From the NCBI GenBank assembly GCA_003135555.1, contig PLCF01000036.1, forward strand, positions 208 to 10,861: a stretch of DNA of 10,654 nt. The letters run 5' to 3'. How positions within the stretch are numbered: the stretch's first letter is position 1; each line of letters opens with the position of its first letter. Positions 6,001 to 10,654 of the stretch are shown one piece after another. The stretch is from Vulcanimicrobiota bacterium. GTDB taxonomy: Bacteria > Vulcanimicrobiota > Vulcanimicrobiia > Vulcanimicrobiales > Vulcanimicrobiaceae. A program made the position numbers.

Positions 6001-9000
6001 CATTCGAAGATGTCGGCGGTGGCCTGCAACTCGAGCTTGGACTCCAGGAGGGGCTTGCCTTGTTCGAGCGTGAGGATGCGCCCGATCGCGTCGACGCGTT
6101 CGCGGATGAGCCGGGCGGCGTTGCGCAGCACGACCGCGCGATCGTAGGCCGAGGTCGCGCGCCAGCGGGCGAAGCCGCGCTGCGTCGAGGCCAGCGCGTC
6201 GCGCAGGTCGTCGTCGGTGGCGATCGGCAGCCGGCCGATCTCGGCTCCGGTGGCCGGATCGTGGACGGCGATCGAGCGGCGCTGCTCGGCGGTGATCGAG
6301 GCGCCGCCGATGATGAGGCGCAGCTCCTTCGCGTAGCCGGTCGGAACGGTAGTCGCGGTCGTCATGACCGGCGATACACGTCCGGGCGGCTTCCTCCTGT
6401 CGGAGGGGCCGGCCGACCCCGTCCGCGTACCGAGAGCCGATGTCGCCGCACCTCAATCTCGACCCGGCCGCGAGCGGCGGGGCGTTCGAAGCCTACCAGG
6501 CGCTCCCGCCCGGCGAGGGTACAGCGCCGGCGCTGCTGCTGCTGCCGCCGATCTTCGGGGTCGAGCTCGTGATCGAAGGGCTGGCCGACCGCTACGCGGC
6601 GCGCGGGTTCGTGACCCTCGCTCCCAACCAGTTCTGGCGCGACGCGGAACCCGGAATCATGCCGCGCACGGACGCGGGTCGCGAACGCGCGTTCGCGCGC
6701 GCACGGCGCGTCGACGTCGACCAGATCGTCGGCGACGTGCGCACCGCCGTCGCCGCGCTGCGTGCCATGCCGCGCTGCAACGGCAAGGTTGCGGTGCTGG
6801 GGATTTGCTTCGGCGGCCGCTACGCGTTTCTCGCCGCCGCGCGGCTCGACGTCCAGGCGGCCGGCGCGTTCCACGGCACCCAGATCGGCTTGAGCCTCGG
6901 CGACGGCCCCACGGTGCACGCGCCGCTGAGCTTGCAGTTCGGCGCCGACGATCCGATCACGCCGCCCGCGGAGATCGACGCGATCCGCGCCGCGCTCGCG
7001 CACCGGCCCGACGCCGAGATCACGGTCCATCCGGGCTCGACGCACAACTTCTCGCTGCCCGGCGTTCCCGGCTACGACCCGCAGGTCGCGGCGGATGCCG
7101 AGCGGCGCGTATTCGACCTGTTCGGCGGCCTCTGAGCGCGCTACGCGCGCAGCTCGCGCACAACCGCGTCGAGATCGTCGTAGGACTCCACGATCCCACG
7201 ATTGCGGGGGGTGATGAAGCCCTTCGCCGCGGCGCCGTCGATGAGGGCCAAGAAGTGATCGTAGAAGCCGTCGATGTTGGCGAGGATGCAGCGCGCGTCG
7301 ATGAGCCCGAGTTGCACCCAGGTGACGATCTCGAAGAACTCTTCGAGTGTTCCGAAACCGCCCGGCAGCGCGACGAAGGCGTCGGACAGCTCGGACATGA
7401 GTTGCTTGCGCTCGTGCATTGACTCCACGACGCGCAGATCGACCCCCGAATGGGCGACCTCGCGTTCTTCGAGGAAACGCGGGATGACGCCGATGACCTC
7501 GCCGCCCGCCTCGAGCGCGCCGTCCGCGACCGCGCCCATCAGGCCGACGCGGCCGCCGCCGAACACCACGCCGATCCCGGCGCGTGCCAGCGCGGCGCCG
7601 AAGGCGCGCGCGGTCGCGGCGAAACGCGGATCGTCGCCTTCGGACGACCCGCAGTAGACGCAGACGCGCACGCCTACTCGACCAGCGTGCCTTTTACGGC
7701 TTGGCGATTCGTCGCCAGCGGGCGGATGCCGTTGGCGCCGAGCCGCACGAAGTGCTCGGTCTGGTAGTGCGCGTCGAGCGCGGCCTGATCGCGATACGTC
7801 TCGAACAGCACGAACGCGCCGCGCTCGTCGTCGCCGCGGCACACCTCGTAGCCCAGAACGCCTTCCTCGCGCAGCGAGGCCTCCCGGAGCTCCCGGAGCA
7901 GGCGTTCCGCCTCGTCGGCCGTGTCGTCCGGGAACGAGTACAGCACCGCATTGACCAGCATCGCGGAGAGCCTTTTACGCGGGGGCTGCGACCTTCCCGC
8001 CTGCGCGAGCCACGGCTTCGCGGATCATCGCGTCCTGCACCGCAGGGATGGCCCAGCGCGCCTGCGCCTCGGCCGAGAGCGTGTCGATCGGGTCGAAGTA
8101 CAAGAACGACTGTTCGGGTTTGACGCTGGGCGCGCTATAGACCGCGATCCCGTTCTCCCGGTCGTAGAAGTCGAACGAGTGGACGTCGCGCTTGCCGCCG
8201 CCGCCGGGCGCGTCGCAGATGAACAGCGGCGTGTTGAACCCGGCGGTCGTGCCGCGCACGAACTTCTCCAGGTCGACCGAGGTCTGGATCGAGGTGCGCA
8301 TCTCCTCGACGCCTTTGACGAGGTCGTGCATGTAGACGTAGTACGGGTGCACGTTGACCCACGACATGCGCTTTACCAGCAAGGTCATCGTCGCCGGGTC
8401 GTCGTTCACGCCGCGGATCAGCACGGACTGGTTGCGCACCGTGATCGCGCGCGAAAACAGCACGTCCATCGCCCGCTTGGTGATTTGGGTGATCTCGTTG
8501 GGCGAGTTGAAGTGCGTGTGGACGACGACGTCCTTGCCGAGCTTGCGGCCGTGGTCGACGACGCCGCTAAGCGCGTCGGTCCAGGCGTGATCGGTGAGGA
8601 TCTTCATCGGCATCACCGCCGGGCCTTTGGTCGCGAAACGCATGCGGCGCACGTGCGGGATCGCCAGCAGCGATTCGCCGATGAGCGTGATGTTTTTGGC
8701 CGCCATCTGGTAGACGTCGCCGCCGGAGATGACGATGTCTTCGAGCTCGGGGCGCGACGCGATGTACGCGAAGGCCTGTTTCCACTGTTCGGGCGTCTTG
8801 GCCAGCGCCGCTTTGTCGACCGATTCGGTGTCGGGCCCGATGGCGTACGAGCGCGTGCAGAAACGGCAGTACACGGGGCAGGTCTGGAGCGGCAGGAACA
8901 GTGCCTTGTCGACGTAGCGGTGGGTCAGCCCCTGTACGGGTGCGTCGTCCTGCTCGTGCAGCGAGTCGAGCGTCAGCCGCGGGTGATCGGGCAGCAGCTT

Positions 9001-10654
9001 CGACGCGACCGGGATGAACTGCCGGCGGATCGGATCCTCGTACGGGCGCGTCCAGTCGATGCACGCGATCATATACGGCGATACGCGCACCGCCATCGGC
9101 GCGCGGCGGAAACCTTCCTTGGCGTCCTCGAGGAAGGTCGGGTCGACGATCTCGCCGATCGTCTCGAACAGCTCCTCGGTCGTCTTGACCGACTTGCGTC
9201 CCTGCCAGATGTGATCGAGGAACGTCGCCTCGTCGACGTCTTCGTAGGCCGGGACCGCGCGCCAGAATTCGCCGCCGCGCAGGTTGCGATGCTCCAGCTC
9301 GGCCGGATCGACGGGTGGCTTGAGATGGTGGTTCACGCCGCAGACCCTGAGAAGCGCGTAACGAAGTAGTCTTTGATCGCCGGATGATCGCGCAGCGTCT
9401 GCAGCGCGACCGCCGCGTGTCCTTTGGCGTAGCCGTTGCCGACCATCATGTTGACGTCTTTCCCGACGCCCTCAGCGCCCAGCGCCGCGGCCGTGAACGA
9501 CGTCGACATGGAGAAGAAGTAGACCGTGCCGCCGTCCTTGCAGCAGAGGATCGAGGCCAGCTCGGTGCCGCACACGTTCACACAATTGATCACGAGGTCG
9601 GCGAGTTGCGGCAGCGCGGCCGGCAGCGCTTCGAGTACCGCCAGCGCGTCGCGGGCGTCGACGACGGCGAGGTCGTCGACGTAGCCCTGCTCGACGAGCA
9701 GTTGACCGGCCGCCGTCCCGAGGCGCGGCACGATGCCGACGACGCGTCCCTGCGGGCCGACGCGCTCGCGCGCTTGCGCGCAGGCCAGCAACCCCGACTT
9801 GCCGTCGGCGCCGATGACGCAGACGGTCTGGCCTTCGTGCGCGAGCCGCCGCACCTGCGCCGGCGCGCCGGCGACGTCGAGGACGGCGAGCGCGACGTCG
9901 GTCGGCAGATCGTCGGGCAGTCGCGCGTACATCGCGCTCTCGAACAGGATCGCCGTGCCCCGCACCGCGATCTGACCGGTCGTCACGTCGACCGCGGTCA
10001 CCTCGTCGAGGTGCAGTGGGGTGAGGGTGAGCGAGACGAGCGATGCGATGCGGTCGCCGACCGCGACGTCCTCGCGCGACGCCAGCGCCGGACCGATCTC
10101 GCGGACGCGCCCCACGAACATCCCGCCGCTGCCGGTAACCGGATTGTGCTGCTTGCCGCGCTCGCGCACGGTCGCCAGGACGTGCGCGCCGACGGCGTGG
10201 GGATCGCCGGCGCACGCATCGGCGATCTGCTTGAACGAGGCCGAGTCGACGTTGAGGGTCTCGACGTCGCACAGGATCTCGTTGGCGAACGCGCGCGGCG
10301 TGTTGTCGAGCTTCCACGCGCTCTGCGGCAGCGCACCCTTGGGCTCGCACACGCGGTGCGAGCCCAGCCGGCAACCGCTGCCCAGCGGCGCGACGAGATG
10401 CGCATCGTCGAGTACGTGCGTCAAGCGAGCGCCTCGACCGGGAGGCCGCCGCGTTCGAACGGGGTCGAGAGCACCAGCGTCGTGCGCGTGCGCGCCACCC
10501 CGGGGACGCGCTTGATGCGGGTCAGGAAGTCGTCGAGGTGCGCGGTGGAGCGGGTGCAGACTTTGAGCAGATACGTCTCGTCGCCGGCGACGCTGTGGAT
10601 CTCGAGGACCTCGGGAAACGCCTGGACCGCTGCGGTGAAGCCGTCGTAGTCGAG

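Follow-up and report, generated by a model that had tools for sequence, protein, structure and literature searches.

The window analysed here, a stretch of 10,654 nucleotides from the genome of a Vulcanimicrobiota bacterium (G000; 84% complete), carries a coupled lrp-kdd-kamA unit, while the remaining genes of the beta-lysine pathway lie elsewhere in G000 (table 1). The TGA stop codon of lrp overlaps the TTG start of kdd, and the kdd stop is in turn overlapped by the GTG start of the gene for a divergent lysine 2,3-aminomutase, labelled KamA* in the following. An lrp homolog is found directly upstream of kdd in 43/43 evaluable loci, and a full-length ortholog (locus L280) matches AsnC/Lrp models with scores below cut-off. 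That the window encodes Kdd, as the first-pass annotation had proposed, is borne out by NF052381 (251 versus a cut-off of 200) and by the match to the solved 3,5-diaminohexanoate dehydrogenase 7DL3 (E 1.3e-92), the identity to Kdd of firmicutes and Thermotogota being 47-54%. The ABM-family gene is frequently co-conserved with kamA* in close relatives and the LOG-family gene is a frequent neighbour within the family; for both a role in the pathway is only putative.

Table 1. Features in the window and further pathway genes of the source genome (x/y, score/cut-off).
Feature	Position	Strand	Basis
Lrp/AsnC-family regulator gene, 3' part (truncated at contig end)	10421..10654	-	translation; upstream position conserved
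kdd, L-erythro-3,5-diaminohexanoate dehydrogenase, 363 aa	9333..10424	-	NF052381, PDB 7DL3
kamA*, divergent lysine 2,3-aminomutase (predicted), 453 aa	7975..9336	-	TIGR00238 pass, TIGR03820 fail; residues; fold
ABM-family small protein, 13 bp after kamA*	7674..7961	-	PF03992
LOG-family protein, downstream	7141..7671	-	TIGR00730 187 vs 96
kamD/kamE	C58:232052-234327		KamD 772/600, KamE 334/280
kal, after mazG	C58:123116-123574		NF052388 201/160
kamC + kamB-like, after mntP	C71:23255-25695		KamC 306/300, KamB-like 163/210
kce, before oppBC	C71:12826-13647		379.4/382
3-oxoacid CoA-transferase A/B	C70		similar to firmicute AtoDA, 36% and 58%

The aminomutase had initially been taken as clostridial-type KamA. 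Its membership of the family stands, as TIGR00238 is passed (220 versus 199), but the type does not: the lysine 2,3-aminomutase equivalog model TIGR03820 fails (239.5 versus 525.4, firmicute controls scoring 609-642), and the protein falls on a separate branch. Because this curated model fails, annotation of the KamA* branch stops at 'KamA family'. The gene is the sole KamA-family gene found in G000, and its product is 33-37% identical to tested KamA proteins. The structural model (pLDDT 95.5) has as best fold match 2A5H, the KamA of Clostridium subterminale (TM 0.70, E 2e-31), with which KamA* shares the fold, the cluster cysteines and the substrate and PLP residues, while differing from it in overall identity (about 33%), in branch and in the lack of a C-terminal CxCxxC. 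The CxxxCxxC motif aligns to Cys125/129/132 of 2A5H, and Arg162, Asp338, Asp375 and Lys382 align to Arg134, Asp293, Asp330 and Lys337 (PGGGGK337), which we take to be the lysine-binding and PLP residues; they are kept in 119-121 of 121 KamA* locus rows, some rows being the same genome twice. On sequence grounds KamA* is assigned to a distinct, non-clostridial branch of the KamA family, and we infer that L-lysine would be its substrate.

Other parts of the protein have diverged, with His131->Phe and Cys292->His changes, a longer N-terminus and a helical C-terminus like that of a Streptomyces aminomutase. The Cys268 site is Asp or Thr, and the C-terminal CxCxxC occurs in 0/121 KamA* rows versus 15/33 canonical rows. 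These are presumably structural zinc cysteines; being absent also from about half of the canonical rows, they are not diagnostic, and the idea that their loss is an aerobic adaptation is not supported, as canonical KamA of anaerobes often lacks them too. In the tree, KamA* groups apart from the canonical enzymes, with myxobacterial, ablB-linked and fungal proteins, and aminomutases of the wider branch are found in Streptomyces and fungi. Of 44 evaluable loci, 42 have kamA* immediately after kdd, a position held by canonical KamA in 35/35 other loci; one member of the branch lies inside a kamB-kamD-kamE-kce-kdd cluster (locus L230), and the branch adjoins ablB in four Bacteroidota/Calditrichota/Ignavibacteriales loci. 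We know of no member of the branch with a tested activity. Beta-lysylation of EF-P by EpmA/EpmB is ruled out, with TIGR03821 (EpmB) at 158/369 and no EpmA over cut-off: the single TIGR00462 (EpmA) matches in 5/5 genomes (211-232 versus 287) are read as lysyl-tRNA synthetase.

Elsewhere in G000, KamD and KamE match 8T0V/1XRS with E<1e-181 and contain the DxHxxG and PLP-Lys motifs; that KamD is instead the ornithine mutase OraE is ruled out by the OraE model (122/800). Kce scores slightly below its cut-off (379.4 versus 382), with the next family at 249 and the true Kce 2Y7D as best PDB match (E 1e-74), and order-wide only 1/59 Kce matches is over cut-off, all scoring 362-384. KamC is over cut-off and has a Walker A motif (GPNMGGKS), MutS2 being excluded by profile scores; its gene overlaps the adjacent kamB, whose KamB-like product covers only positions 3-178 of the 326 of the model and is 31% identical over 186 aa to Sedimentibacter KamB. 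For Kdd, KamD, KamE, Kce and Kal, identity to the firmicute orthologs is 44-69%.

The first-pass annotation was right that the beta-lysine enzyme set, reactivase included, is a long-held trait of this aerobic order, and the set is vertically inherited. Its estimate of prevalence (76-77%) was too low, kdd being present in 271/301 order genomes (257 over cut-off) and in 177/190 of high quality; among 60 high-quality order genomes, KamD is found in 59, Kce in 58 and Kal in 59. Full-length KamC occurs in 52/61 order genomes, a count that leaves out extra KamC-model matches of MutS/MutS2-length frames, and the reactivase is lost in 9/61. No kdd, kamD or kal was found in 14 control genomes. In the 1.9 Mb genome G027 the pathway genes are lost together and kamA* is retained. 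Kdd of the order forms a single clade (100/99), and recent horizontal transfer is ruled out, since the eight pathway genes have GC3 values inside the range of the genome (10th-99th percentile) and the Kdd and KamA* trees track lineage. Records titled Rhodospirillales, Armatimonadota, Acidiferrales and Binatus fall inside the class in the tree and show the gene order typical of it; they are therefore not counted as transfers, and the records may be mislabelled.

The scattering of the genes over five housekeeping neighbourhoods had been regarded as fixed in the order, which does not hold: most genera have four pathway loci, five being a trait of the source genus, and kamC and kce lie on the same strand within 15 kb in 51/51 genomes with both (<200 bp apart in 39). 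In the sister family a single operon, lrp-kdd-kamA-kamB-kamC-kce, is found, so that dispersal is largely operon decay, the operon being still intact in that family. The position of kamDE near thl-acd-sucCD is weak evidence, because long-range synteny is general in these genomes.

That the order uses the established beta-lysine pathway, the steps of which match those in PMC8473912, as respiratory or assimilatory lysine catabolism is in our judgement fairly likely; lysine is probably burned rather than fermented in this soil/peat order. In such a scheme the Lrp regulator would control lrp-kdd-kamA*; KamA*, with its radical SAM and PLP chemistry, would convert L-lysine to beta-lysine, and AdoCbl/PLP-dependent KamDE would convert the latter to 3,5-diaminohexanoate, KamBC and the PduO adenosyltransferase acting on salvaged cobalamin to keep KamDE active in most members. 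Kdd would then oxidize and deaminate 3,5-diaminohexanoate, Kce with acetyl-CoA would yield acetoacetate and 3-aminobutyryl-CoA, and Kal would release NH3 from 3-aminobutyryl-CoA to give crotonyl-CoA, which may be hydrated and oxidized via crotonase/FadB, Hbd and thiolase with no reduction to butyrate; acetoacetate would be activated by a succinyl-CoA-type CoA-transferase. The expected net yield is 3 acetyl-CoA, 2 NH3 and 2 NADH per lysine with zero carbon lost as CO2, acetyl-CoA entering the TCA cycle and the glyoxylate shunt. We infer the regulation of the route, the direction of its lower part and the flux.

All five steps are present and retained together across the order. G000 holds thl-hbd-acyl-CoA dehydrogenase genes beside sucCD, two FadB-like and several crotonase-family genes, aceA/aceB and a heme-copper oxidase subunit I motif; thiolase, Hbd, the glyoxylate shunt and the oxidase fit respiratory use. 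PduO is found in 60/60 high-quality order genomes and was not found in the 84% complete G000. The CobN/BchH family occurs in 4/31 members and CobS in 8/15 of the genus; most members appear to lack aerobic-route cobalamin synthesis, so that flux would require cobalamin from external sources. G000 also encodes a GcdH-like acyl-CoA dehydrogenase and a homolog of Orn/Lys/Arg decarboxylases, and it may thus have a second route for lysine. Three RNA contig sets of the same study gave only short pieces at 80-95%, evidence neither way. The paradox of an oxygen-labile enzyme in aerobes is weaker than first stated, as aminomutases of the wider branch occur in those Streptomyces and fungi and PMC8473912 lists B12 mutases as oxygen-tolerant. 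The cultured relative V. alpinus, whose KamA* is WPS_33210, is an obligate aerobe; its failure to use lysine, initially listed against the pathway, is confirmed but carries little weight, because none of the 12 defined substrates tested supported its growth, yeast extract alone doing so (PMC9758169).

Fermentation of lysine to butyrate and acetate, the use implied by the first-pass annotation, might sustain cell maintenance at times when wet peat or soil turns anoxic, and peat is often anoxic. G000 does hold acyl-CoA dehydrogenases, an EtfBA pair, the AtoDA-like CoA-transferase and an acetate-kinase match. We nevertheless consider it improbable: neither Rnf nor a pta match was found in G000 (84% complete, the sole genome checked), ackA is in two frames, the single etfBA pair is not adjacent to an acyl-CoA dehydrogenase, and etf is absent beside the thl-cluster acyl-CoA dehydrogenase in 9/9 regions including that gene (10 fetched). 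Such bcd-etf synteny is the mark used in PMC3994512, and V. alpinus shows no anaerobic or fermentative growth (PMC9758169). Equally doubtful is that KamA* is no lysine mutase, kdd-kamDE-kce-kal only degrading soil beta-lysine or D-lysine taken up by the kce-linked Opp system: the low identity, the two substitutions and the altered C-terminus would allow it, and 5,6-aminomutase also takes D-lysine (PMC3958899), but the equivalents of Arg134, Asp293, Asp330 and Lys337 are conserved, and coupling to kdd order-wide and linkage to ablB elsewhere are two independent beta-lysine contexts.

A further possibility, not exclusive with respiratory catabolism and held more tentatively than it, is that KamA* mainly makes beta-lysine or another beta-amino acid for a class-wide purpose, the B12-dependent branch of the order being overflow, recycling or nitrogen recovery and not a growth pathway. 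KamA* is found in 70/71 class genomes, including 16/17 of the sister order, where the lrp-kamA* pair is retained while kal (0/17), kdd (0/4) and kamD (0/4; G361 likewise) are missing; G027 points the same way, and 3/5 lone-kamA* genomes elsewhere lack a kamD match. That KamA* is kept where other pathway genes are missing suggests that its main job may lie elsewhere. Yet a beta-lysine-consuming partner was not found: EpmA exceeds its cut-off in 0/5 genomes, ablB is not beside kamA* in this class, and Kce-family genes occur in just 2/4 sister-order genomes, far from kamA*; in this order, moreover, the translational coupling of kamA* with kdd speaks for a catabolic role. It is conceivable, if rather speculative, that KamA* represents an uncharacterised lysine 2,3-aminomutase branch, mainly in aerobes (Vulcanimicrobiota, Sericytochromatia, myxobacteria, ascomycete fungi) and possibly more O2-tolerant, which in a dominant order of acidic soils drives aerobic, carbon-conserving breakdown of lysine and, where the B12 branch is missing, provides beta-lysine for a second process.

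Taken as respiratory or assimilatory catabolism, this is, as far as sequence allows, a known pathway of predicted activity in a new variant with a non-clostridial first enzyme. It shares orthologs of Kdd, KamD, KamE, Kce and Kal with lysine fermentation in C. subterminale/sticklandii and Fusobacterium nucleatum (reference cluster kal-kce-kdd-kamA-kamB-kamC-kamD-kamE, atoDA, bcd-etf), and the kdd-kamA-kamB-kamC order, kept in the sister family. Unlike in that system, the hosts are aerobic, KamA is of another branch, an Lrp regulator is present, the genes occupy 3-5 loci, no Rnf or bcd-etf link was found (G000) and the reactivase is lost in 9/61. Aerobic degradation of 3,5-diaminohexanoate is known from Brevibacterium, and KamA of Bacillus subtilis is air-stable; the latter type, unlike KamA*, groups with the canonical enzymes (Bacilli rows of the tree). 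The route had already been said to occur in non-clostridial genomes, and indeed Vital et al. (2014, PMC3994512) record genes of the lysine pathway for the Actinobacteria and the Thermotogae, phyla without a described butyrate producer; here, by comparison, the pathway is near-fixed throughout an order, and the branch to which KamA belongs is resolved. Outside subscription papers and bioRxiv supplements, no literature on this pathway in Eremiobacterota/Vulcanimicrobiota was found, and five pathway terms are absent from the six supplementary files of PMC9758169. If the proposal is true, a pathway known from textbooks as anaerobic would be among the core traits of an aerobic order abundant in soil and peat, and would tie this order to external vitamin B12; butyrate production could then not be read from the presence of kam genes in soil metagenomes. 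An air-tolerant member of the KamA* branch would be useful for beta-amino-acid biocatalysis, and, as the cultured relative encodes a protein 86% identical to it, KamA* is testable now.

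Features of the window
Feature	Position	Strand	Remarks
Tandem paralogue pair	535-1305 and 1361-2299	plus	signal-peptide-like starts; no Pfam match; one with a weak NCBIfam hit only
ilvE (branched-chain aminotransferase), convergent with MocR/PdxR-type regulator and aldehyde dehydrogenase	2385-6365		
KamA-family gene (kamA*)	7975-9336	minus	only broad family model passed, 220 vs 199
kdd	9333-10424	minus	NCBIfam model passed, 251 vs 200; matches solved dehydrogenase 7DL3
Lrp/AsnC gene, 3' part	10421-10654	minus	cut by contig end

The lrp/kdd and kdd/kamA* junctions are each formed by a 4-base stop/start overlap. 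Close relatives of the window proteins carry Vulcanimicrobiota or Eremiobacterota titles, and WPS_33210 of Vulcanimicrobium alpinum is 86% identical to KamA*, as the divergent 453-residue KamA of the window is called here. As far as examined, the genes at 2385-6365 have no linkage to kdd-kamA in relatives.

The clostridial type assigned to KamA by the first-pass annotation is not borne out. The protein fails the lysine 2,3-aminomutase equivalog TIGR03820 (239.5 vs 525.4), for which firmicute and Petrotoga KamA proteins adjoining kdd score 609-642 and KamA* with its relatives 221-274; its identity to anaerobe orthologs is 33-37%, against 44-69% for Kdd, KamD, KamE, Kce and Kal. In a quick 60-row tree, canonical KamA stands apart from the group with KamA*, which comprises the class Vulcanimicrobiia (96), Sericytochromatia (99 together with the class), Myxococcota, ablB-linked proteins and two fungal proteins, and which a Streptomyces aminomutase joins on long, unsure branches; neighbouring Atlas clusters consist mostly of Myxococcota, Ascomycota and Actinomycetota. 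In 119-121 of 121 partly non-independent rows, KamA* retains the cluster cysteines and the counterparts of Arg134, Asp293, Asp330 and Lys337, four residues that serve in substrate and PLP binding in lysine 2,3-aminomutase; the structure model (pLDDT 95.5) has 2A5H as top match (E 2e-31; next 2e-6).

Gene context is consistent with lysine as the predicted substrate of KamA*: kamA* directly follows kdd in 42/44 evaluable loci, branch members occur with ablB on a Fulvitalea plasmid and at three other loci, and at locus L230 one lies opposite a kamB-kamD-kamE-kce-kdd block. To our knowledge, no member of the branch has been assayed. Myxobacterial kamA* genes (L221-L227, L267 and L241-L266) stand in housekeeping-like contexts without kam neighbours, by eye near queA-tgt in one group and near glutaredoxin, sulfotransferase and methyltransferase-like genes in another. 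On a Rhizobium plasmid (L167), a relative (50%) adjoins aminotransferases and a type I polyketide synthase, possibly a beta-amino-acid biosynthetic cluster.

The remaining route genes of the source genome (G000, 84% complete), as first annotated, were all located with firmicute and Petrotoga operon proteins as queries. Like Kdd, the KamD, KamE, Kal and KamC proteins score above the NCBIfam cut-offs, Kce reaches 379.4 vs 382 and the short KamB-like protein 163 vs 210; the best solved matches are 2Y7D, a true Kce enzyme, for Kce and 5,6-aminomutase alpha chains for KamD. Across the order Vulcanimicrobiales, kdd is found in 271/301 genomes (13 unpublished ones included), above cut-off in 257, and in 177/190 high-quality ones; among 60 high-quality genomes plus G000, KamD is present in 60/61, Kce in 59/61, Kal in 60/61 and full-length KamC in 52/61 (46 above cut-off). 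These counts serve as description rather than as statistical tests, related genomes not being independent. The KamC reactivase is absent and KamDE retained in genus g7 (4/4) and in genomes G051, G014, G022 and G056.

The order's Kdd proteins form a single clade (100/99) in which the sister family branches at the base, a pattern that fits vertical descent. Outside this class, the distribution of kdd in the phylum is patchy (12/56), and canonical KamA adjoins it in 3/8 fetched loci. Two kdd-kamA* pairs occur in genome G019, and two kamA* loci, one without kdd, in one Ca. Velthaea record (L125 and L140). Records L114, L118, L121, L124, L020 and L162, titled Rhodospirillales, Armatimonadota, Alphaproteobacteria, Acidiferrales or Binatus, show the class gene order and nest in class trees; their titles may be wrong. 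Cobalamin is probably salvaged by order members, since CobA/BtuR was matched in 0/61 genomes, CobS in 8/15 of the genus of G000 and the CobN/BchH family in 4/31, and the PduO adenosyltransferase in 60/60 high-quality genomes; PduO had no match in G000.

Five housekeeping neighbourhoods, as first described, hold for the genus of G000, and not as a trait of the order, where four loci are usual and the sister family (f2) has three. The dispersal is mostly operon decay. In f2, kdd and kamC lie 3.5 kb apart in 3/3 genomes, and two loci read whole have the order lrp-kdd-kamA-response regulator-kamB-kamC-kce-oppB, adjoining proline dehydrogenase, which echoes the firmicute kdd-kamA-kamB-kamC. At the same site, family f1 keeps (response regulator)-(mntP)-kamB-kamC-kce-oppBC, with lrp-kdd-kamA relocated. 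The kamC and kce genes are found on the same strand no more than 15 kb apart in 51/51 genomes having both, and the gap is <200 bp in 39; a gap of 9-11 kb, as in G000, is seen in 5/6 such genomes of its genus. In G014, only kamBC has been cleanly lost from the interval between mntP and kce. Of 60 matches, kal follows mazG in all 20 loci examined, G000 included. In 10/10 fetched regions, gmd and thiolase lie downstream of the kamDE pair (hbd in 6, sucC visible in 7), a proximity that is treated as weak evidence. Directly upstream of kamD in G000 (contig C58, L084:4507-7736) are three secreted beta-helix proteins, tandem paralogues.

The first gene also occurs without the others. KamA* is found in 70/71 class genomes (one unpublished), including 16/17 of the sister order, where lrp directly precedes it and kal (0/17), kdd (0/4) and kamD (0/4) were not found; genome G027 (1.9 Mb, 96% complete) keeps kamA* (L321:8076-9464, no lrp called directly upstream) but has none of kdd, kamD, kce, kal and kamC. 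Among candidate partners, EpmA (5 genomes searched), ablB and a consistent Kce were not found. Two histories are conceivable: the pathway was present in the class ancestor and two lineages retained only its first gene, or kdd arrived by a later insertion; under both, KamA* would have a B12-independent use.

The beta-lysine pathway itself is already known, and its lower steps are reportedly used aerobically in Brevibacterium, for which the literature search retrieved no source. The search returned no description in Vulcanimicrobiota/Eremiobacterota. New here are that the pathway is fixed across an order of aerobes, that the break-up of its operon can be traced, and that it is paired with a KamA* branch outlasting it. 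Pathway genes are noted in Actinobacteria in PMC3994512, and the accessible portions of PMC3149608 and PMC11484240 hold nothing bearing on the pathway in Vulcanimicrobiota/Eremiobacterota.

Fermentation, the function first proposed, finds little in its favour. The fermentative route terminates with crotonyl-CoA reduction and butyrate (PMC8473912), and the customary signature in genomes is bcd-etf synteny (PMC3994512). The single etfBA pair of G000 lies away from every acyl-CoA dehydrogenase, Rnf and pta had no match in this 84% complete genome, and the cultured isolate is an aerobe without fermentative growth (PMC9758169). The acetate kinase match (C16:218-1097) is split over two reading frames, by a broken gene or an assembly error. 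The failure of V. alpinus to grow on lysine, previously offered as a refuting datum, says little, because none of the defined substrates tested was used (PMC9758169 Table 1). G000 has thiolase-Hbd adjoining sucCD, and it also carries aceA/aceB, a heme-copper oxidase motif and genes of the FadB-like and crotonase-family kinds; in respiratory use, lysine would yield 3 acetyl-CoA, 2 NH3 and 2 NADH with no decarboxylation, by our own stoichiometry. PMC8473912 (section 9 part 1) counts B12 mutases among the oxygen-tolerant enzymes, and KamBC retention can be explained without invoking oxygen, because 5,6-aminomutase is inactivated during turnover and has an activating component (PMC3958899).
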